Positions 6,870 through 16,917 of a stretch of DNA of 17,408 nt are shown here, in pieces. Made by a program: the position numbers and the translations under genes. The notes beneath the pieces are model-generated. The model saw nothing but the letters and a program-made list of their open reading frames with translations. It searched no databases and had not been told where the DNA came from. The stretch lies in the IMG/VR virus record IMGVR_UViG_2630968397_000004; one strand, given 5' to 3'. Positions within the stretch are counted from its first letter, which is position 1, and the number at the start of each line of letters is the position of its first letter. The DNA comes from a virus (taxonomy: Duplodnaviria; Heunggongvirae; Uroviricota; Caudoviricetes).

Positions 6870-7208
6870 TACCGGTATGCTCCACTTAACCGGCCACCAT
6901 CACGGGCCTGCTGTTGCATAAAGTCCGCGGCCGCTTTTTTCCCGAGGTCATAAACCACCTTCAGGGCAGCCGGACCTATCTGCCCGTTCGTGCCATCGTT
7001 ATTGATCTCAATGTTGTACTGCGGGGCAAACATCACCATGCCTGAACCACCAGTATCCGCCACACCCCCCAGCTTACCATCAGCACCGCGACGCAGTGGC
7101 AGAATGGCTTCAGGTCCCGCTTCCCCCATCACACCCGCGCCTTTTGCAAAAGCAAAAAACGTCGGACGGTTAACCACCGTGCCACTGTAGCGACTCAAAT
7201 CAGCAGAC
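6869..7208 (-). pseudogene. H: 3' fragment of lambda H-like tape measure gene, truncated by IS600 insertion
   Basis: Reading frame is open from the IS600 left end (7209) down to the stop at 6869 and encodes ...ADLSRYSGTVVNRPTFFAFAKGAGVMGEAGPEAILPLRRGADGKLGG..., a tape-measure C-terminus-like sequence. The track's leading MSVKLRLP residues are encoded by IS600 terminal sequence. Confidence 0.8.
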
Positions 7209-7690
7209 TGAGGTAGCCTGAGTTTAACGGACACTCCTTCCTGAAATAGAATGGCATCAGAAGGAGCTAATAATGAGCAGAAAAACCCAACGTTACTCTA
7301 AAGAGTTCAAAGCCGAAGCTGTCAGAACGGTTCCTGAAAATCAACTTTCGATCAGTGAAGGCGCTTCCCGATTATCTCTTCCTGAAGGCACTTTAGGACA
7401 ATGGGTTACCGCCGCCAGAAAAGGGCTCGGTACTCCTGGTTCCCGCACGGTGGCTGAACTGGAATCTGAAATTCTGCAACTGCGTAAGGCGTTAAATGAA
7501 GCTCGCCTTGAGCGAGATATATTAAAAAAAGCAACAGCGTATTTTGCACAGGAGTCGCTGAAAAATACGCGTTAATCGAACAATGGCGACAACAATTTCC
7601 CATTGAAGCGATGTGTCAGGTATTTGGTGTATCCAGGAGCGGTTATTACAACTGGGTACAGCATGAACCCTCAGACAGAAAACAAAGTGA
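7209..7690 (+). mobile_element. IS600 (IS3 family), truncated copy 1: left 482 bp only
   Basis: Starts with the same TGAGGTAGCCTGAGTTTAACGG terminus and orfA offset (64 nt) as the full-length copy at 15654-16917. Sequence stops matching after ...AAAGTGA, where a second IS600 left end begins. Confidence 0.9.
7273..7575 (+). CDS. IS600 OrfA (100 aa, helix-turn-helix transposase N-terminal part)
   Basis: ORF track; identical to orfA of copy 3. A7 slippery run (TTAAAAAAAGC) near the 3' end where the -1 frame is open. Confidence 0.9.
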   Translation: MSRKTQRYSKEFKAEAVRTVPENQLSISEGASRLSLPEGTLGQWVTAARKGLGTPGSRTVAELESEILQLRKALNEARLERDILKKATAYFAQESLKNTR

Positions 7691-7751
7691 GGTAGCCTGA
7701 GTTTAACGGACACTCCTTCCTGAAATAGAATGGCATCAGAAGGAGCTAATA

Positions 7752-8054
7752 ATGAGCAGAAAAACCCAACGTTACTCTAAAGAGTTCAAAGCCGAAGCTG
7801 TCAGAACGGTTCTTGAAAATCAACTTTCGATCAGTGAAGGCGCTTCCCGATTATCTCTTCCTGAAGGCACTTTAGGACAATGGGTTACCGCCGCCAGAAA
7901 AGGGCTCGGTACTCCTGGTTCCCGCACGGTGGCTGAACTGGAATCTGAAATTCTGCAACTGCGTAAGGCGTTAAATGAAGCTCGCCTTGAGCGAGATATA
8001 TTAAAAAAAGCAACAGCGTATTTTGCACAGGAGTCGCTGAAAAATACGCGTTAA
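7752..8054 (+). CDS. IS600 OrfA (100 aa)
   Basis: ORF track; P21L variant of the other copies. Confidence 0.9.
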   Translation: MSRKTQRYSKEFKAEAVRTVLENQLSISEGASRLSLPEGTLGQWVTAARKGLGTPGSRTVAELESEILQLRKALNEARLERDILKKATAYFAQESLKNTR

Positions 8055-8089
8055 TCGAACAATGGCGACAACAATTTCCCATTGAAGCG

Positions 8090-8729
8090 ATGTGTCAGGT
8101 ATTTGGTGTATCCAGGAGCGGTTATTACAACTGGGTACAGCATGAACCCTCAGACAGAAAACAAAGTGATGAGCGGCTAAAACTGGAGATTAAGGTGGCA
8201 CATATCCGCACTCGCGAAACATATGGAACCCGGCGGCTCCAGACGGAGCTGGCAGAGAATGGCATCATCGTTGGTCGTGACCGACTGGCACGTCTTCGTA
8301 AGGAGCTAAGGCTACGCTGTAAGCAGAAACGCAAGTTCAGAGCGACTACGAACTCGAACCACAATCTGCCAGTTGCGCCAAATCTGCTGAACCAGACGTT
8401 CGCTCCTACAGCACCAAATCAGGTCTGGGTGGCGGACCTGACGTATGTTGCCACACAGGAGGGATGGTTGTACCTCGCAGGAGCAGTCTGGTCTGAAAAC
8501 ATCAATGTCGCGTAAAGGTAACTGTTACGACAACGCTCCGATGGAAAGCTTCTGGGGAACGCTGAAAAATGAGAGCCTGAGCCACTATCGTTTTAATAAC
8601 CGGGATGAAGCCATCTCAGTAATACGGGAATACATTGAGATTTTCTACAATCGTCAGCGTCGTCACTCTCGTCTGGGGAATATCTCCCCGGCAGCCTTCA
8701 GGGAAAAATATCATCAGATGGCTGCTTAA
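8090..8729 (+). pseudogene. IS600 orfB disrupted by the 179-bp deletion (frameshifted; split into 141-aa and 94-aa track ORFs)
   Basis: Track ORFs 8090..8515 and 8445..8729 together correspond to the 272-aa OrfB of copy 3 minus residues IKDVYTCE...DYRVIQ. Confidence 0.85.
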
Positions 8730-8822
8730 AAAAAGAACAAATGGTAGTGTCCGCTATTGCCAGTACACCTCACACTCTATCCAACAAACCACCCACAGTT
8801 AATCGGAATAAAAGCAGAGTGC

Positions 8823-8954: not shown

Positions 8955-9029
<75 letters not shown>

Positions 9030-9032
9030 ATA

Positions 9033-9108
<76 letters not shown>

Positions 9109-9110
9109 GC

Positions 9111-9187
9111 TGGCCCACCACCGAGGACTCGAACCTCGCACCGTCAACTTAGAAGGTTGATGCTCTATCCGGATGAGCTAGTGGTGG
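9111..9187 (-). tRNA. tRNA-Arg (anticodon UCU), 77 nt with encoded CCA
   Basis: Reverse complement CCACCACTAGCTCATCCGGATAGAGCATCAACCTTCTAAGTTGACGGTGCGAGGTTCGAGTCCTCGGTGGTGGGCCA. All four stems pair; anticodon loop CTTCTAA. Confidence 0.75.
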
Positions 9188-9188
9188 T

Positions 9189-9265
9189 TGGTGGCCCTTG
9201 CTGGACTTGAACCAGCGACCTGGCGATTATGAGTCGCTCGCTCTGACCAACTGAGCTAAAGGGCC
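9189..9265 (-). tRNA. tRNA with CAU anticodon, Ile2 (ileX/ileZ-like, lysidine) or Met, 77 nt with encoded CCA
   Basis: Reverse complement GGCCCTTTAGCTCAGTTGGTCAGAGCGAGCGACTCATAATCGCCAGGTCGCTGGTTCAAGTCCAGCAAGGGCCACCA. Close resemblance to E. coli tRNA-Ile2 (GCGACTCATAATCGC core and identical T arm). Separated from tRNA-Arg by 1 nt. Confidence 0.75.
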
Positions 9266-10966: not shown

Positions 10967-11179
10967 CTAACAGGATGCTCTGACTCGCAATTCATCCAGC
11001 AGTTTATCATTTCCCATAATGTCACTTACCCTCATCGGTAAAAAAATTGCCTTTCGACCATTACGATACATCATTGATTTTTTGGTTTCAGGGAAGTAAT
11101 CCATTTCGACTATAACTGACAGGTCATCACGACGTATGACTGCGTATTTACTACTAAATAGTTTCTTTATTTTTTCCAC
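10967..11179 (-). CDS. hypothetical 70-aa protein, GTG start
   Basis: ORF track. Start codon is GTG, preceded by GGAGG 4 nt upstream. No recognisable family. Confidence 0.5.
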   Translation of the reverse strand: MEKIKKLFSSKYAVIRRDDLSVIVEMDYFPETKKSMMYRNGRKAIFLPMRVSDIMGNDKLLDELRVRASC

Positions 11180-11285
11180 GATGCCTCCAGGTTTATAAGT
11201 ACAAACGGTTATATCAACATAGAGACAAAAGGTGATGCTGCCAACTTACTGATTTAGTGTATGATCGTGTTTTTGAGGTGCTCCA

Positions 11286-11561
11286 GTGGCTTCTGTTTCT
11301 ATCAGCTGTCCCTCCTGTTCAGCTACTGACGGGGTGGTGCGTAACGGCAAAAGCACTGCCGGACATCAGCGCTATCTCTGCTCTCACTGCCGTAAAACAT
11401 GGCAACTGCAGTTCACTTACACCGCTTCCCAACCCGGTACGCACCAGAAAATCATTGATATGGCCATGAATGGCGTTGGATGCCGGGCAACTGCACGCAT
11501 TATGGGCGTTGGCCTCAACACGATTTTACGTCACTTAAAAAACTCAGGCCGCAGTCGGTAA
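11286..11561 (+). CDS. insA: IS1 InsA (91 aa)
   Basis: ORF track protein [43 protein letters not shown]... A6C frameshift motif TTAAAAAACTC at 11535-11545. Confidence 0.95.
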
Positions 11562-11983
11562 CCTCGCGCATACAGCCGGGCAGTGACGTCATCGTCTGCG
11601 CGGAAATGGACGAACAGTGGGGCTATGTCGGGGCTAAATCGCGCCAGCGCTGGCTGTTTTACGCGTATGACAGTCTCCGGAAGACGGTTGTTGCGCACGT
11701 ATTCGGTGAACGCACTATGGCGACGCTGGGGCGTCTTATGAGCCTGCTGTCACCCTTTGACGTGGTGATATGGATGACGGATGGCTGGCCGCTGTATGAA
11801 TCCCGCCTGAAGGGAAAGCTGCACGTAATCAGCAAGCGATATACGCAGCGAATTGAGCGGCATAACCTGAATCTGAGGCAGCACCTGGCACGGCTGGGAC
11901 GGAAGTCGCTGTCGTTCTCAAAATCGGTGGAGCTGCATGACAAAGTCATCGGGCATTATCTGAACATAAAACACTATCAATAA
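11480..11983 (+). CDS. insB: IS1 InsB reading frame (expressed as InsAB' transposase by -1 frameshift)
   Basis: ORF track 167 aa; -1 frame relative to insA. Confidence 0.9.
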
Positions 11984-12059
11984 GTTGGAGTCATTACCAA
12001 AAAAACCGCCGAAACGGGTTAAGTGCGGGTGCGTTGAGGATGCCTGACACATCAAAGGT

Positions 12060-12081
12060 GGCGGGAGATTACTCTCCCGCC
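12060..12081 (-). terminator. 9-bp perfect hairpin (GGCGGGAGA-ttac-TCTCCCGCC) 10 nt downstream of the hok stop; putative hok mRNA 3' stem-loop/terminator
   Basis: Seen directly. Followed on the minus strand by ACCTTTGATGTG (moderately U-rich). Confidence 0.45.
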
Positions 12082-12090
12082 TGGTCACTC

Positions 12091-12246
12091 TTACTCTCTA
12101 GATTCGTAGTCTACGAAAACAGCGACCTCCGTCTGGCCGATTCGGATTCGTACCTCGCAGAGGTCTTTCCTCGTTACCAGTGCCGTCACAATGACGGTTA
12201 AACAGATGACGATCAGGGCGATTAACATCGCCTTTTGCTGCTTCAT
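12091..12246 (-). CDS. hok: Hok-family type I toxin (51 aa)
   Basis: MKQQKAMLIALIVICLTVIVTALVTRKDLCEVRIRIGQTEVAVFVDYESRE, recognised as Hok/Gef family (closest to HokD/RelF as recalled). SD AAGGAGAAG upstream of ATG. Track ORF 12091..12303 is the in-frame upstream (mok-like) extension. Confidence 0.85.
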   Translation of the reverse strand: MKQQKAMLIALIVICLTVIVTALVTRKDLCEVRIRIGQTEVAVFVDYESRE

Positions 12247-12420
12247 AGCCTGCTTCTCCTTGCCTTTCGGCACGTAAGAGGCTAACCTACATTTGTGAGA
12301 CATAGATTGGGCCTCAGATTAATGTTAAGCGTCTTGCAGGACGCGTAATGTTAACTGGGGCTTTTCTCTGTCTGCCTTACAGTGACATACCCGAGGCAGA
12401 CAGCCTCAAGCACCCGCAGC
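12247..12420 (-). promoter_or_regulatory. hok mRNA leader with mok-like upstream start and conserved hok/sok leader elements
   Basis: Minus-strand sequence GCTTGAGGCTGTCTGCCTC...GGCAGACAGAGAAAAGCCCC...AGGCCCAATCTATGTCTCAC...TAGCCTCTTAC...GCAAGGAGAAGCAGGCTATGAAG parallels the plasmid R1 hok/sok leader as recalled. Confidence 0.6.
12296..12350 (+). ncRNA. putative Sok-like antisense RNA, antitoxin of the hok locus
   Basis: Plus-strand promoter-like -35 TTGCCT (12260-12265), 17-bp spacer, -10 TAACCT (12283-12288), positioned like the R1 sok promoter. Transcript would be complementary to the mok-like start region. Hairpin GCGTC-ttgcag-GACGC at 12329-12344. Inferred, not proven. Confidence 0.35.
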
Positions 12421-12584
12421 AATCTTACCGACACCGATAAGAAAACGCTATTTTTTATTGCCAGCACCATCTATCCAGGCTAGTTTATCTGCGTCAGAAC
12501 GGCGCAATGCGCTCGCCTGAGATACGTTTACTTGCCATGGTAACAACAGGTAACGGCAATTGCTGTTTCTGTTTTGTTTCCTTC

Positions 12585-12615
12585 AAAAACCCCGGACCAT
12601 CAATCCGGGGTTTTT
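12585..12615. terminator. bidirectional Rho-independent terminator (AAAAA-CCCCGG-loop-CCGGGG-TTTTT)
   Basis: Seen directly: stem 12590-12595 / 12605-12610, A5 at 12585-12589 and T5 at 12611-12615. Lies immediately after the 27-aa ORF stop on the minus strand. Confidence 0.75.
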
Positions 12616-12620
12616 GTTTG

Positions 12621-12704
12621 TTAACCCCAACGGCAAATCGAATACACCACCAGCGCCACCGCCATCGCAATTCCTACCGTGGTGAATGCCTCAGGCCAGG
12701 TCAT
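12621..12704 (-). CDS. 27-aa hydrophobic peptide (MTWPEAFTTVGIAMAVALVVYSICRWG), translationally coupled to the upstream gene
   Basis: Manual translation. ATG overlaps the stop of the DUF551-like gene (ATGA). GGAGGTG 5 nt upstream. Followed directly by the terminator. Below the ORF-track size cutoff. Confidence 0.45.
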   Translation of the reverse strand: MTWPEAFTTVGIAMAVALVVYSICRWG

Positions 12705-13066
12705 TGATTCACCTCCTGCGGTGGTTCCGGTAGCGGCATCCAGTGAGTTGAGCTCTCTACTTCAACGCCGTCTTTGTCCACAAAAGCCATCTTATTCCCG
12801 CCACGAGTGGGGCAAAAAACCTTATCCCAGGAACCGGGGAATACATTCCCGAGATCATCGAGAAGAATCACATCGCAATATTCAGCAGGAACTGCATCAC
12901 TACAGCTTATCCAGCCAGCCGGAGCTACCGGAGAGTTGCCAGCCTTACGCATGGCCATTTCCACGATTTCAACCATATCTCCTGGTGGAATTTTACAAAG
13001 TTGCCCAATACATTTCTGCTGCCTGGCATATTCGAGAATGTGCTCCAGTTTGGTTCGATTAATCAT
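12701..13066 (-). CDS. DUF551-like phage protein (121 aa)
   Basis: ORF track. C-terminal WISCSDAVPAEY...VILLDDLGNVFPGSWDK...THWMPLPEPP resembles the conserved DUF551 C-terminal motif as recalled. Start overlaps the stop of the upstream 221-aa gene. Confidence 0.65.
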   Translation of the reverse strand: MINRTKLEHILEYARQQKCIGQLCKIPPGDMVEIVEMAMRKAGNSPVAPAGWISCSDAVPAEYCDVILLDDLGNVFPGSWDKVFCPTRGGNKMAFVDKDGVEVESSTHWMPLPEPPQEVNQ

Positions 13067-13731
13067 TATTTATCTCCCTTAAGCATGGCAGCGCGGCAGG
13101 CGTTCCAGCCATCAACATAATCAAACGTATTACTATCGTTTGGCCCGATTTCATCCGGCACTATCGGCTCTGGTTGGATAGTGACGTTGGCAAAGGCAGC
13201 ACGCAAACCGGTTTTAATTTCTTCGATTTCATCAGAGCCAAGCGATGAATCTGACAGTGCGTGATGGAATGCGTAAGCCATGTCGTCGTTTACTGCAACC
13301 GGCACTGCCGGCGCTGCGTAAAGCGGTGTTATATCTGCCCGAAAATCACATGCTTTATGCAGTCGTACCCAACACTCAACTTCCGCTTTGTCAAAATATA
13401 TAGCAGTGAACGTATTAGATTCCTGGTCAACTTGAGTAAACGTCACCTTCCACGCTACAGCTACGGCTTTCCATCCATCAGGTTGTCGCATTCGCGGGGC
13501 AGCATAAAGCTCATGCATTCCATCAGGCAGCGAGTGACCCACATACTCACCGAACCCGTCAATACACATGCCCCCATCTTCAACAATGCATTCCGCTACA
13601 GGCTCTGCTTCCAGTGATGCCAGAGCGATAAGCGCCAGTTCACGAATTTCACCGCCGTCTATATCGTCAATATCATCGCGGCCAGAAATGTTAGCCAGCC
13701 ATTGCAGTCGCTCTTTGGTAATAGTGGTCAT
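13066..13731 (-). CDS. hypothetical phage protein (221 aa, acidic N-terminus)
   Basis: ORF track. Start overlaps the HNH stop (ATGA) and stop overlaps the downstream start, so the three genes are translationally coupled. No recognisable family. Confidence 0.7.
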   Translation of the reverse strand: MTTITKERLQWLANISGRDDIDDIDGGEIRELALIALASLEAEPVAECIVEDGGMCIDGFGEYVGHSLPDGMHELYAAPRMRQPDGWKAVAVAWKVTFTQVDQESNTFTAIYFDKAEVECWVRLHKACDFRADITPLYAAPAVPVAVNDDMAYAFHHALSDSSLGSDEIEEIKTGLRAAFANVTIQPEPIVPDEIGPNDSNTFDYVDGWNACRAAMLKGDK

Positions 13732-14093
13732 GCCGTAGCCCCTTCTTGATATTTTTCAAACCAGAACACAACCGGGTCAGATTTCATTTCAACCAATCCC
13801 ATACGAACCAGCGCTTTGCCTTTCCCGGACGCAAGGAATTCACGACGACCATCACTGATAATTCGTCGATAATCTTCCAGGCTACTGCAATGCTTGTGCA
13901 GATTGCATGGGTGGCATGCTGGTACCATGTTGGATATATCGTCACGTTCCTGGTGAAGCATATTTCCATCAAAACGAATGACCGGTTTTACATGGTCTGC
14001 ATGCCACTTTTCGCCAAGTTCGCAGCCGCAATAAGCGCAGCGACCACCGAACTTCATGCGCAGTTCTGCACGTTGTTTTTTCGTCAGTGCCAT
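13728..14093 (-). CDS. HNH endonuclease (121 aa)
   Basis: In-frame ATG at 14091-14093 with AAGGAAAG Shine-Dalgarno. MALTKKQRAELRMKFGGRCAYCGCELGEKWHADHVKPVIRFDGNMLHQERDDISNMVPACHPCNLHK has the C-x2-C, H-x-D-H, N and C-x2-C-N-x-H-K elements of the HNH/His-Me finger. Track ORF start at 14183 is over-extended. Confidence 0.85.
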   Translation of the reverse strand: MALTKKQRAELRMKFGGRCAYCGCELGEKWHADHVKPVIRFDGNMLHQERDDISNMVPACHPCNLHKHCSSLEDYRRIISDGRREFLASGKGKALVRMGLVEMKSDPVVFWFEKYQEGATA

Positions 14094-14094
14094 A

Positions 14095-14313
14095 TCAGCT
14101 TTCCTTATACGGATTAATTTTATTGTGCAGTGTGTTGAATGACGCCCATACCACGTCGTTATACAATTCAATAACTGGCTCAATTATTTTTCCGATTATC
14201 CAGACAAAAATTAGCGGGGATATCGGTGTCATCAACACGATAAACAGAATGAGAAACAGGAATTCTGTTGTTCTACTCTTTCGCGGATATTTTTTTCTAA
14301 ATAATGTAACCAT
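14095..14313 (-). CDS. possible 72-aa small membrane protein in an AT-rich segment
   Basis: ORF track. One strongly hydrophobic segment (FLFLILFIVLMTPISPLIFVWIIGKII). Weak Shine-Dalgarno; the local AT-richness means this could be a chance ORF. Confidence 0.35.
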   Translation of the reverse strand: MVTLFRKKYPRKSRTTEFLFLILFIVLMTPISPLIFVWIIGKIIEPVIELYNDVVWASFNTLHNKINPYKES

Positions 14314-14405
14314 TCATTACCGCCCTTTCGGGCGGTCTCCTGATGATTTGAGGGTGCAGAAATCCCTCCGGTTAAGGATTAAATTTTTAACAGTGCTAAA
14401 TTTAA

Positions 14406-14746
14406 TTATTCAGTTCTGGATTTTGTCGCCCTGCGTATCCGCGCTTTCGCGTTACGCTCAATCTGTATCAGCTTTTCTATATTTCTCCGCCTTTCCTGTT
14501 CCTCCTGGCGCAATAGCCTTACATCATCTGCCAGTCTGGTTTCTCTTTTTGCCACAGAGAGCATCCAGTCAAACGGCTCCACAACCGCACCGCAGATTTT
14601 ACAGCGGACCTGACGCTCTTTTTCGTCAACCCGGACAGAGGCGTGATGGCAATATGGTCTTTCCGATGGTTCATAAAGAAAATTAACCTGATTACGTGGG
14701 TCATCCTCTTTTACCGGAAATAAAACGATATTGCTTAACTCATCTT
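14406..14746 (-). pseudogene. 3' portion of a 118-aa Zn-ribbon/basic coiled-coil phage gene interrupted by IS1 copy B
   Basis: Frame is open from the IS1 junction to TAA at 14406-14408 (...CHHASVRVDEKERQVRCKICGAVVEPFDWMLSVAKRETRLADDVRLLRQEEQERRRNIEKLIQIERNAKARIRRATKSRTE). Continues across the IS1 target duplication into 15515-15540. Confidence 0.6.
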
Positions 14747-14801
14747 GGTGATGCTGCCAACTTACTGATTTAGTGTATGATGGTGTTTTTGAGGTGCTCC
14801 A

Positions 14802-15077
14802 GTGGCTTCTGTTTCTATCAGCTGTCCCTCCTGTTCAGCTACTGACGGGGTGGTGCGTAACGGCAAAAGCACTGCCGGACATCAGCGCTATCTCTGCTCT
14901 CACTGCCGTAAAACATGGCAACTGCAGTTCACTTACACCGCTTCTCAACCCGGTACGCACCAGAAAATCATTGATATGGCCATGAATGGCGTTGGATGCC
15001 GGGCAACAGCACGCATTATGGGCGTTGGCCTCAACACGATTTTACGTCACTTAAAAAACTCAGGCCGCAGTCGGTAA
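14802..15077 (+). CDS. insA: IS1 InsA (91 aa)
   Basis: ORF track; A6C frameshift motif present. Confidence 0.95.
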
Positions 15078-15499
15078 CCTCGCGCATACAGCCGGGCAGT
15101 GACGTCATCGTCTGCGCGGAAATGGACGAACAGTGGGGCTATGTCGGGGCTAAATCGCGCCAGCGCTGGCTGTTTTACGCGTATGACAGTCTCCGGAAGA
15201 CGGTTGTTGCGCACGTATTCGGTGAACGCACTATGGCGACGCTGGGGCGTCTTATGAGCCTGCTGTCACCCTTTGACGTGGTGATATGGATGACGGATGG
15301 CTGGCCGCTGTATGAATCCCGCCTGAAGGGAAAGCTGCACGTAATCAGCAAGCGATATACGCAGCGAATTGAGCGGCATAACCTGAATCTGAGGCAGCAC
15401 CTGGCACGGCTGGGACGGAAGTCGCTGTCGTTCTCAAAATCGGTGGAGCTGCATGACAAAGTCATCGGGCATTATCTGAACATAAAACACTATCAATAA
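14996..15499 (+). CDS. insB: IS1 InsB reading frame
   Basis: ORF track. Confidence 0.9.
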
Positions 15500-15514
15500 G
15501 TTGGAGTCATTACC

Positions 15515-15540: not shown

Positions 15541-15717
15541 GCTCCTCTCCTTTGATGCGAATACCAGCGGTAATTGAAGCCTGATAGCTAATTTTACTCA
15601 CAGTACCGCCTCCTGAAATTTCCCCTGATAAAACGCCAGCACGCGCTGCATAGTGAGGTAGCCTGAGTTTAACGGACACTCCTTCCTGAAATAGAATGGC
15701 ATCAGAAGGAGCTAATA

Positions 15718-16020
15718 ATGAGCAGAAAAACCCAACGTTACTCTAAAGAGTTCAAAGCCGAAGCTGTCAGAACGGTTCCTGAAAATCAACTTTCGATCAG
15801 TGAAGGCGCTTCCCGATTATCTCTTCCTGAAGGCACTTTAGGACAATGGGTTACCGCCGCCAGAAAAGGGCTCGGTACTCCTGGTTCCCGCACGGTGGCT
15901 GAACTGGAATCTGAAATTCTGCAACTGCGTAAGGCGTTAAATGAAGCTCGCCTTGAGCGAGATATATTAAAAAAAGCAACAGCGTATTTTGCACAGGAGT
16001 CGCTGAAAAATACGCGTTAA
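15718..16020 (+). CDS. IS600 OrfA (100 aa)
   Basis: ORF track. Confidence 0.95.
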   Translation: MSRKTQRYSKEFKAEAVRTVPENQLSISEGASRLSLPEGTLGQWVTAARKGLGTPGSRTVAELESEILQLRKALNEARLERDILKKATAYFAQESLKNTR

Positions 16021-16055
16021 TCGAACAATGGCGACAACAATTTCCCATTGAAGCG

Positions 16056-16874
16056 ATGTGTCAGGTATTTGGTGTATCCAGGAGCGGTTATTACAACTGG
16101 GTACAGCATGAACCCTCAGACAGAAAACAAAGTGATGAGCGGCTAAAACTGGAGATTAAGGTGGCACATATCCGCACTCGCGAAACATATGGAACCCGGC
16201 GGCTCCAGACGGAGCTGGCAGAGAATGGCATCATCGTTGGTCGTGACCGACTGGCACGTCTTCGTAAGGAGCTAAGGCTACGCTGTAAGCAGAAACGCAA
16301 GTTCAGAGCGACTACGAACTCGAACCACAATCTGCCAGTTGCGCCAAATCTGCTGAACCAGACGTTCGCTCCTACAGCACCAAATCAGGTCTGGGTGGCG
16401 GACCTGACGTATGTTGCCACACAGGAGGGATGGTTGTACCTCGCTGGCATCAAAGATGTTTATACGTGCGAAATTGTCGGCTACGCCATGGGAGAGCGCA
16501 TGACAAAAGAGCTGACAGGTAAAGCCCTGTTTATGGCGCTCAGGAGCCAGCGCCCACCTGCCGGGCTAATCCACCACTCTGATCGAGGTTCACAGTACTG
16601 CGCATACGATTACCGGGTCATACAGGAGCAGTCTGGTCTGAAAACATCAATGTCGCGTAAAGGTAACTGTTACGACAACGCTCCGATGGAAAGCTTCTGG
16701 GGAACGCTGAAAAATGAGAGCCTGAGCCACTATCGTTTTAATAACCGGGATGAAGCCATCTCAGTAATACGGGAATACATTGAGATTTTCTACAATCGTC
16801 AGCGTCGTCACTCTCGTCTGGGGAATATCTCCCCGGCAGCCTTCAGGGAAAAATATCATCAGATGGCTGCTTAA
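16056..16874 (+). CDS. IS600 OrfB (DDE transposase catalytic part; produced as OrfAB fusion by -1 frameshift)
   Basis: ORF track 272 aa. The -1 frame is open upstream back to the A7 slippery run at the end of orfA. Confidence 0.95.
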   Translation: MCQVFGVSRSGYYNWVQHEPSDRKQSDERLKLEIKVAHIRTRETYGTRRLQTELAENGIIVGRDRLARLRKELRLRCKQKRKFRATTNSNHNLPVAPNLLNQTFAPTAPNQVWVADLTYVATQEGWLYLAGIKDVYTCEIVGYAMGERMTKELTGKALFMALRSQRPPAGLIHHSDRGSQYCAYDYRVIQEQSGLKTSMSRKGNCYDNAPMESFWGTLKNESLSHYRFNNRDEAISVIREYIEIFYNRQRRHSRLGNISPAAFREKYHQMAA

Positions 16875-16917
16875 AAAAAGAACAAATGGTAGTGTCCGCT
16901 ATTGCCAGTACACCTCA

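Follow-up and report, generated by a model that had tools for sequence, protein, structure and literature searches.

Does the short toxin gene carried by a degraded lambdoid prophage of Shigella sonnei belong to a complete hok/sok locus, and has the IS1 copy that lies beside it left this locus intact? The question arises from an initial annotation of the window (the whole stretch of DNA that was analysed, 17,408 nt), which placed a complete locus of this type at 12060-12420. The answer favoured here, with a probability of about 0.85, is that the locus is a structurally complete type I toxin-antitoxin system of the hok/sok family, belonging to the Gef/HokC/HokD/HokW clade and carried by the early-right (nin-like) region of the prophage, and that it would act by a mechanism of the R1/hokW type. 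Completeness was thus rightly recognized, but the interval was too short. It omits the fold-back inhibition element (fbi, 12027-12039), a terminator-like site (11999-12020) and the hok promoter (about 12422-12450), so that the functional unit covers about 11999-12450. It should be stressed that this hok/sok locus is of an ordinary, catalogued type and that the finding, although correct, is already known. Prophage hok/sok loci have reportedly been annotated since 1999, one of them having been characterised in 2021 and a large-scale catalogue having appeared in 2025-26.

The toxin gene hok is located at 12091..12246 on the minus strand (ORF 12094-12246, ATG 12244-12246, stop 12091-12093), behind the Shine-Dalgarno sequence (SD) AAGGAG (12256-12261, minus strand). 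It encodes a protein of 51 aa, MKQQKAMLIALIVICLTVIVTALVTRKDLCEVRIRIGQTEVAVFVDYESRE, whose assignment to the Hok family by the initial annotation is borne out by its match to Pfam PF01848 (Hok/Gef; 77.3 bits for a cut-off of 22, E 7e-22), which covers the full profile (1-42). At least 1000 Shigella sonnei contigs carry exactly this sequence, annotated as a Hok/Gef family protein. The NCBIfam models match it only below their curated cut-offs (51.7 bits vs 73), so the equivalog name HokD cannot be assigned from NCBIfam. Residue 36 is Ile in this protein and Thr, Ser or Ala in all 38 relatives fetched. This Thr36Ile change, caused by a substitution at 12140, is the sole lineage-specific feature of the locus.

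The Rfam family RF01794 ("sok") matches 12241-12415 on the minus strand (118.1 bits vs a gathering score of 59, E = 8e-27), the model being covered end to end (positions 1-157/157). This strand and the end of the model, which is the hok AUG, show that the family describes the hok mRNA leader rather than the antisense RNA. Of 5426 complete E. coli genomes, 4720 contain homologous loci. Six of the seven defining features of hok/sok loci that can be tested in silico were found here, the seventh being the set of alternative pairings, of which that between the mok SD and dcb was not predicted.

The region 11000-14800 of the window is 100% identical to S. sonnei Ss046 (CP000038.1). The element that surrounds the locus is a lambdoid prophage remnant that is non-inducible. 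Its remaining tail genes are J, I, L and the C-terminal end alone of the tape-measure gene; it also holds a rearranged IS3-family copy and four tRNA genes, and lysis and head genes were not found in it. The gene order around hok is DUF1133/Q-like, DUF1364/YbcO, DUF1367, hok, DUF551, a gene without family match and an HNH gene. The hokW-sokW locus aids lysis and phage release after induction (PMC8621323). As the remnant has neither lysis nor head genes, this role in phage release cannot apply to the S. sonnei locus.

All the sequence elements of a hok/sok locus are present. Alignment with four partners (a plasmid R1-type hok/sok, hokW/sokW of phage 933W, a Rac-type phage copy and an IS1-free E. 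coli chromosome) places the 5' end of the hok mRNA at 12415, with GGGUGCUUGAGG as its first nucleotides. The putative hok promoter (12422..12450, minus strand) consists of a -10 box TAAGAT (12427-12422), a weak -35 box TAGCGT (12450-12445) and an A-rich tract upstream. Its -10 box lies at -12 to -7 from the mRNA 5' end, as this end is defined by homology with R1, and R1 has at the matching place a TATGAT validated by mutagenesis (PMC9841398). Upstream of -8, the sequence is unrelated to that of 933W (29 differences), yet it is common to E. coli FDAARGOS_944. The start of the RF01794 match, the alignment and the predicted fold together delimit a full-length mRNA body of 389 nt (12027..12415, minus strand), which would extend to the end of fbi.

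This mRNA begins with the translational activator element tac (nt 1-12; 12404..12415, minus strand), which is identical in the ten close relatives out of ten and is predicted to pair with fbi in the 389-nt form or with ucb in the 358-nt form. The predicted folds also identify ucb, the upstream complementary box or anti-SD AAGCCCC (nt 53-59; 12357..12363, minus strand), whose core AGCCCC is invariant or nearly so across 33 sequences. The mok SD, GAGG (nt 101-104; 12312..12315, minus strand), is located 8 nt 5' of the mok ATG and is kept in 10/10 close relatives; its counterpart in R1 is the GAGG at 104-107 (PMC9841398). The mok-type leader ORF itself (70 aa; 12091..12303, minus strand; ATG 12301-12303, i.e., mRNA nt 113) is in frame with hok and contains it, and the translation of hok would probably be coupled to that of mok. 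An equivalent ATG exists in all 33 relatives, at an offset of a few nucleotides from the aligned column in MAG_L023 and in Pantoea L040. The frame of mok relative to hok varies among these 33 relatives (in frame in 22, +1 in seven and +2 in four). The initial annotation had described a leader parallel to that of R1 with an in-frame mok-like start. All the leader elements and the in-frame ATG were recovered, but the parallel with R1 fails for the frame, because mok is offset by +1 in R1 and the in-frame arrangement is that of mokC and mokW.

Further downstream lies the core of the downstream complementary box dcb, GCCUC (nt 134-138; 12278..12282, minus strand), which is complementary to the GAGGC of the mok SD region and whose putative role is taken from the R1 model (PMC9841398). 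The block that holds dcb (TAGCCTCTTAC or UAGCCUCUUAC) is invariant or nearly so among the 33 relatives. The 9-bp hairpin that had been noticed after the hok stop is real: it starts 9 nt past this stop (12060..12081, minus strand), has a 4-nt GUAA loop and aligns with the R1 hairpin (nt 342-359, the R1 end being nt 361). It putatively marks the end of the processed, translatable mRNA. Finally, fbi (CCUCAACGCACCC; 12027..12039, minus strand), which is complementary to tac, is located between this 3' stem-loop and IS1.

The antitoxin would be expressed from the other strand. The Sok promoter (12260..12288, plus strand) comprises a -35 box TTGCCT (12260-12265), a 17-nt spacer and a -10 box TAACCT (12283-12288). 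This element occurs once in the window for 0.01 occurrence expected by chance. Its hexamers match the sigma-70 consensus at 4/6 and 3/6 positions, and a generic sigma-70 promoter and terminator scan of 11950-12650 called neither the Sok promoter nor the hok promoter nor the Sok terminator. Such a scan is therefore uninformative for the hok/sok family and homology was used instead, so that the credibility of the Sok promoter, weak by consensus, rests on its homology to validated promoters. It is base-for-base identical to the sokW promoter of 933W, in its hexamers and in its spacer, and positionally homologous to that of R1 (TTGCGC-17-TATCCT), as expected from its original description as a Sok-like promoter. 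The only difference from sokW in the promoter region is at 12293, between the -10 box and the start site. Northern blots revealed the sokW RNA, and promoter mutations suppressed its antitoxin activity, a mutation of the -10 box releasing the toxicity of HokW; sokW provided in trans partly restored growth, and its antitoxin activity partly needs RNase III and Hfq (PMC8621323).

The predicted Sok-type antisense RNA is about 71 nt long (71-75; 12295..12365, plus strand), according to the 933W annotation carried over by alignment. Like its promoter, it is positionally homologous to Sok of R1. It is predicted to fold (-30.7 kcal/mol, z = -5.9) into a long hairpin, preceded by a single-stranded 5' tail of about 14 nt and followed by a U-rich end. 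The 5' tail is complementary to the region of the mok start codon.

Both alternative folds described for this family were obtained from the S. sonnei sequence. In the minimum-energy fold of the 389-nt RNA, tac (nt 1-12) pairs with fbi (nt 377-389) through 12 pairs with a pairing probability of 0.99, nt 55-57 and 59 of ucb pair with the GAGGC of the mok SD region (nt 101-105), and nt 335-356 form the 3' hairpin. Removal of the last 31 nt leaves a 358-nt RNA that ends 2 nt past the hairpin base and in which nt 1-8 of tac pair with ucb (nt 53-59). In the minimum-energy fold of this shorter form, the partner of the mok SD is a nearer segment rather than dcb. Such a rearrangement from a closed to an open form was described for R1 (PMC9841398), and the R1 mRNA behaves alike under identical folding (fbi nt 389-396, full length 398 nt, hairpin end nt 361).

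The comparison of 47 loci from species-representative genomes (Escherichia, Shigella, Kluyvera, Citrobacter, Pantoea, Photorhabdus and others) indicates that these pairings are maintained. A complement of tac is found 45-56 nt past the stop codon in every locus bearing the 5' motif, the exceptions being R1 and L017, a hokC copy cut by IS186. The changes in tac and fbi are compensatory in Photorhabdus (tac GGGCGCUUGAGA, fbi UCUCAAGCGCCC), Pantoea (tac GGGCGCUUGAGG, fbi CCUUAAGCGCCC) and Citrobacter (tac GGGUGCUUGAAG, fbi CUUCAUAGCACCC), relative to the E. coli type (tac GGGUGCUUGAGG, fbi CCUCAACGCACCC). When the structure of the window's own mRNA is projected onto an alignment of 33 full-length mRNAs, 82.8% of the structure cells are paired, vs 39-46% after a shift of the partners by 1-3 columns, and 18 pairs are changed on both sides; this count is biased in favour of the structure, which derives from one of the aligned sequences, but the margin and the number of double changes are large nonetheless. 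At position 4 of tac/fbi, for example, 19 sequences have a U-A pair and 12 a C-G pair. In the same way, 95.6% of the cells of the 3' hairpin are paired among the 33 sequences, with three pairs changed on both sides. The distal tac/fbi cells seem unpaired in the column count because a 1-nt bulge of the E. coli-type fbi shifts the register relative to Photorhabdus, and a register-aware listing of the duplexes resolves their pairing. The RNA pairings thus covary across 33 relatives, from Escherichia to Photorhabdus. An alignment had been proposed as the way to find out whether the fold-back and translational activator elements are missing from the leader. Neither is missing: the two elements pair in the predicted fold and covary among the relatives, which supports the interpretation.

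The closest characterised system is hokW-sokW of 933W/Sp5 (AF125520, Plunkett 1999; Takada et al. 2021, PMC8621323), which experiments established as a type I TA system (PMC8621323). It shows 92.4% nucleotide identity with the locus over 12017-12423 and shares its layout, with a 70-aa in-frame mok, a 51-aa hok and a 71-nt antisense RNA. The AF125520 annotations of sokW, mokW and hokW correspond in the window to 12295-12365 (plus strand), 12091-12303 (minus strand) and 12091-12246 (minus strand), respectively, and the tac and fbi sequences are the same. The Hok proteins are identical at 48 of 51 residues, the S. sonnei protein differing by Thr36Ile and by another C-terminal dipeptide. The Sok RNAs differ at 7 of 71 nt, six of these differences being in the 5' recognition tail. 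The genetic contexts also differ: hok is located between the DUF551 and DUF1367 genes in the nin-like region, whereas hokW of 933W is near the right end of the genome, and 933W is a phage in which the system has a release role, whereas the host prophage of the S. sonnei locus is a remnant that cannot be induced.

The locus and hok/sok (parB) of R1 have the same elements in the same order, i.e., tac, 5' hairpin, ucb, Sok target, mok SD and start, dcb over the Sok -10 box, hok SD over the Sok -35 box, hok, 3' hairpin and fbi, and the same two-state folding is predicted for both. The mRNA lengths are 389/358 nt in S. sonnei and 398/361 nt in R1. The UTRs and coding sequence of R1 are only loosely similar to those studied here, and HokW is 44% identical to the Hok protein of R1 (PMC8621323). 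Compared with R1, the S. sonnei locus has a longer Sok-target hairpin and an fbi with a 1-nt bulge, and it is carried by a chromosomal prophage instead of a plasmid.

Among the chromosomal loci of E. coli K-12, hokD (relF, Qin prophage) and hokC (gef) encode proteins of the same clade, HokD-type proteins being 90% identical and HokC-type ones 76-78% identical to the S. sonnei Hok. NCBI gives the name HokD to many near-identical copies. However, the K-12-type hokD copies (L010 and L011) lack tac and the leader and have a relBE-like sequence upstream, whereas the S. sonnei locus retains all these elements. The K-12-type hokC copy has lost fbi, and its 3' hairpin is interrupted by the end of IS186, whereas fbi and the hairpin are both retained in S. 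sonnei.

By homology with R1 and hokW, the locus could work as follows. The weak hok promoter would produce a stable mRNA of about 390 nt, whose tac (5' end) would be paired with fbi (3' end). In this closed form, ucb would sequester the mok SD, so that neither mok nor the coupled hok would be translated and Sok would be unable to bind. Slow exonucleolytic trimming from the 3' end to the 9-bp hairpin would remove fbi; tac would then pair with ucb and the mok start region would be opened. The constitutive and unstable Sok RNA of about 71 nt would pair through its 5' tail with this region, leading to a block of translation and to cleavage by RNase III. If Sok synthesis stopped, because the DNA was lost, transcription was blocked or the prophage was induced, the processed mRNA would be translated and the 51-aa Hok would damage the inner membrane. 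Transcription, processing, toxicity of the Ile36 allele and a physiological role are what we infer for the S. sonnei copy, and the roles proposed at the outset, stabilisation of the island or abortive infection, are speculation. Prophages are enriched in hok (bioRxiv 10.1101/2025.08.07.668861), and chromosomal hokA, hokB and hokC gave no post-segregational killing in earlier tests, as these are related at second hand (Pedersen and Gerdes 1999, via bioRxiv 10.1101/2025.08.07.668861). This negative outcome counts against the favoured explanation, as do the poor match of the Sok and hok promoters to the sigma-70 consensus, the Ile at position 36, the weak terminator next to IS1, the remnant state of the prophage and the failure of the truncated fold to form the mok-SD/dcb stem of R1.

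The IS1 copy next to the locus (768 bp; 11231..11998, plus strand) is a neighbour rather than a part of the system. It directly follows the run of 7 U of a weak terminator-like hairpin (-3.8 kcal/mol; 11999..12020, minus strand). The hairpin is unchanged in an IS1-free relative, where 8 T follow it, and a Rac-type relative has a stronger version (-10.9 kcal/mol). Compared with the IS1-free E. coli FDAARGOS_944, to which the locus is 99.4% identical, an AT-rich spacer of about 132 bp downstream of the terminator T-run was replaced by IS1 and the T-run was reduced from 8 to 7. This IS1 has no target-site duplication, whereas a second IS1 (14747-15514) has one of 10 bp. The junction between IS1 and hok is identical in the 6/6 S. 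sonnei loci examined and has no true match in complete E. coli genomes (just three full-length hits at 92-95% identity), which makes it a feature of S. sonnei.

The initial annotation had located IS1 about 60 bp past the hairpin and considered the locus to be intact. The distance is 61 nt and the elements are indeed spared, but the true margin is narrower: since fbi and the terminator lie within these 61 nt, IS1 begins just 28 nt past the last functional element. Inactivation by an IS, of the type seen in hokA, hokC and hokE of K-12, would require that it part the hok frame from the 3' hairpin or from fbi, and IS1, which lies 3' of fbi, separates neither. Furthermore, the stretch 11999-12470 differs from FDAARGOS_944 by only three substitutions, at 12389 (loop of the 5' hairpin), 12140 (Thr36Ile) and 12118 (synonymous), none of which affects tac, fbi, ucb, dcb, the SDs or the Sok promoter.

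A rival explanation is that IS1, while sparing the known elements, has damaged the function of the locus. Read-through of hok into IS1 could misfold the mRNA, and antisense read-out from IS1 could cross the 3' end of hok. The loss of about 132 bp and of one T without target duplication would be compatible with such damage, as would the weakness of the terminator hairpin that abuts IS1 and the orientation of the IS1 transposase genes towards hok. Moreover, when the transcript is extended by at least 150 nt into IS1, the predicted ensemble shifts from tac/fbi (0.99) to tac/ucb (0.99), whereas no length tested opens that of the IS1-free relative. However, when the tail was shuffled with its composition kept, 6 of 25 versions produced the same flip, and a specific disruption of the fold-back by IS1 read-through was thus rejected. 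In addition, tac would pair with fbi during transcription, ahead of the synthesis of the IS1 part, and any tail would be lost through 3' trimming. For these reasons, the flip caused by the IS1 tail is not regarded as meaningful. As the IS1-free relative has an equally weak terminator and the mature 398-nt end of R1 likewise lies upstream of a downstream hairpin, functional damage by IS1 is considered improbable. A related proposal, which we hold to be very improbable, is that the S. sonnei copy was recently attenuated or re-purposed. The fixed Thr36Ile change, located in the exported part of Hok, would alter the toxicity or the behaviour of the mRNA, the IS1-associated deletion that left a weak terminator could contribute by read-through or antisense read-out, and a prophage lysis helper would have become a tolerated chromosomal element with another role.

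A more serious competitor, although rather unlikely, is a locus that is structurally intact and physiologically silent, carried along in a decaying prophage with a toxin weakened by Thr36Ile and with no role in stabilisation or defence. The restriction of the Ile36 allele to the S. sonnei lineage would fit with this explanation, as would the state of the prophage, which has lost its genes for lysis and for the head and is interrupted by many IS1 and IS3-family copies. It is at odds with the conservation of all the regulatory elements, which the three substitutions separating the locus from its E. coli counterpart leave untouched, and with the activity of its close homologue hokW-sokW (PMC8621323). 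In addition, 42 of 45 diverse Hok peptides are toxic, wherever they are encoded (bioRxiv 10.1101/2025.08.07.668861). With an inactive toxin, Sok and the RNA switch would also be freed from selection, but they show no visible decay, although the elapsed time may be short. The most sceptical explanation, a chance ORF accompanied by chance hairpins without any real gene system, could invoke the shortness of the ORF and the weakness of the promoters by consensus. It deserves almost no credence, being refuted by the Pfam and Rfam matches (with the E values given above) and by an RNA structure that covaries across genera, and homologous loci occur in most complete E. coli genomes, as counted above. 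A structurally complete hok/sok-family locus therefore remains the preferred reading.

The significance of this locus is small outside annotation. Its boundaries, 11999 to about 12450, are needed for cloning or deleting the hok/sok unit. The S. sonnei prophage remnant keeps a complete unit, whereas several copies of E. coli K-12 are cut by ISs or rearranged. If active, the locus could hinder the loss of the IS-flanked segment and would be a further Sok/hok pair in a genome where several are already present.

A minor observation concerns the Tyr47 codon of hok. The minimum-energy fold places it in a stem-loop, UAGA-CUACGAA-UCUA (12099..12113, minus strand), which is a candidate for A-to-I recoding by TadA (Tyr to Cys), in which the A at 12107 would be edited. 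The corresponding Tyr codon (position 46 in the paper) is reported to be edited in hokC, hokD and hokE (PMC5630033), and the TACGAA of this stem-loop is invariant in 33/33 relatives.

The antisense RNA of the hok/sok locus varies most at its 5' tail. Among close relatives, this segment (12295-12310, plus strand, equivalent to nt 106-121 of the hok mRNA) has the lowest conservation of all segments, with 69% identity to the window, whereas most other elements reach 92-100%. Six of the seven differences from sokW, the antisense RNA of the phage 933W hokW/sokW system, lie within the Sok 5' tail. Such a pattern is what one would expect if the recognition regions of paralogous hok/sok pairs grow apart, so that cross-talk is avoided. 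The match to the Rfam family RF01794 ("sok antitoxin") lies at 12241-12415 on the minus strand, which is the sense strand of the hok mRNA. The consensus of this family begins with the tac sequence (mRNA 5' end) and ends with the hok AUG; therefore, the strand of the Rfam "sok" match is that of the toxin mRNA leader and not that of the antisense gene.

Hok itself carries an allele specific to its host lineage. Codon 36 (12139-12141, minus strand) is ATC, encoding Ile, in S. sonnei, while Thr, Ser or Ala occupies this position in each of the 38 relatives retrieved. At least 1000 S. sonnei contigs encode precisely this Ile36 protein, and the change is therefore fixed in the S. sonnei lineage. Further downstream, a stem-loop (12099-12113, minus strand) presents the Tyr47 codon UAC in its 7-nt loop, CUACGAA, above a 4-bp stem; this heptamer is also that of the tRNA-Arg(ACG) anticodon loop. 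The TACGAA sequence at this site is invariant in the alignment of full-length hok mRNAs (33/33 relatives), and the candidate edited A is at 12107. A-to-I recoding of Tyr to Cys by TadA has been reported for hokC, hokD and hokE (PMC5630033). The stem-loop is a candidate site that fits this recoding, which would give Hok its second cysteine.

Upstream of hok lies a hydrophobic 27-aa ORF (MTWPEAFTTVGIAMAVALVVYSICRWG; 12621-12704, minus strand), which shares an ATGA overlap with the stop codon of DUF551. After it comes a strong 13-bp hairpin terminator (12584-12616). This predicted terminator would insulate hok from upstream transcription. RefSeq leaves the small ORF unannotated in the relative, but on 79 contigs it appears in other annotations as "bacteriophage protein".

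The two IS1 copies of the window differ by 3 of 768 nt. The second (14747-15514) is a simple insertion, 16 nt inside a hypothetical gene and flanked by a 10-bp duplication (AACTCATCTT), whereas the first (11231-11998) lacks a target duplication and stands in place of about 132 bp found in the IS1-free E. coli FDAARGOS_944. The loss of these 132 bp is due either to an adjacent deletion or to recombination between two copies of IS1. When folded in silico (11850-12415, minus strand), hok transcripts reaching at least 150 nt into IS1 switch from a closed (tac/fbi) to an open (tac/ucb) ensemble, a switch never seen when the IS1-free relative is folded in the same way. However, this predicted effect of read-through is probably not meaningful, because 24% of shuffled tails, used as an in silico control, also give it.

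The K-12-type hokC copy of E. coli ECDA1023 (L017:1340-2547) provides a useful contrast, as it lacks fbi, the 3' fold-back element, unlike the locus of the window. Its homology to the intact E. ruysiae hokC ends within the 3' hairpin, at locus position 1376, and is followed by an element end that is presumably IS186-like. This end is accompanied by a 316-aa ORF, taken to be the transposase of the element.

Elsewhere in the window, four tandem prophage tRNA genes (8955-9265, minus strand) correspond to Gly-TCC, Thr-TGT, Arg-TCT and a CAT-anticodon tRNA, which is Met according to ARAGORN but Ile in the RefSeq annotation of the E. coli relative. Two copies of an IS3-family element are also present (7203-8772 and 15648-16917), one full, with ORFs of 100 aa and 272 aa, and one rearranged, which has a duplication of its first 488 bp and lacks about 178 bp internally. 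It is this rearranged copy that cuts the tape-measure gene short and adjoins the tRNA cluster, a junction located at the expected place of the lysis and head genes.
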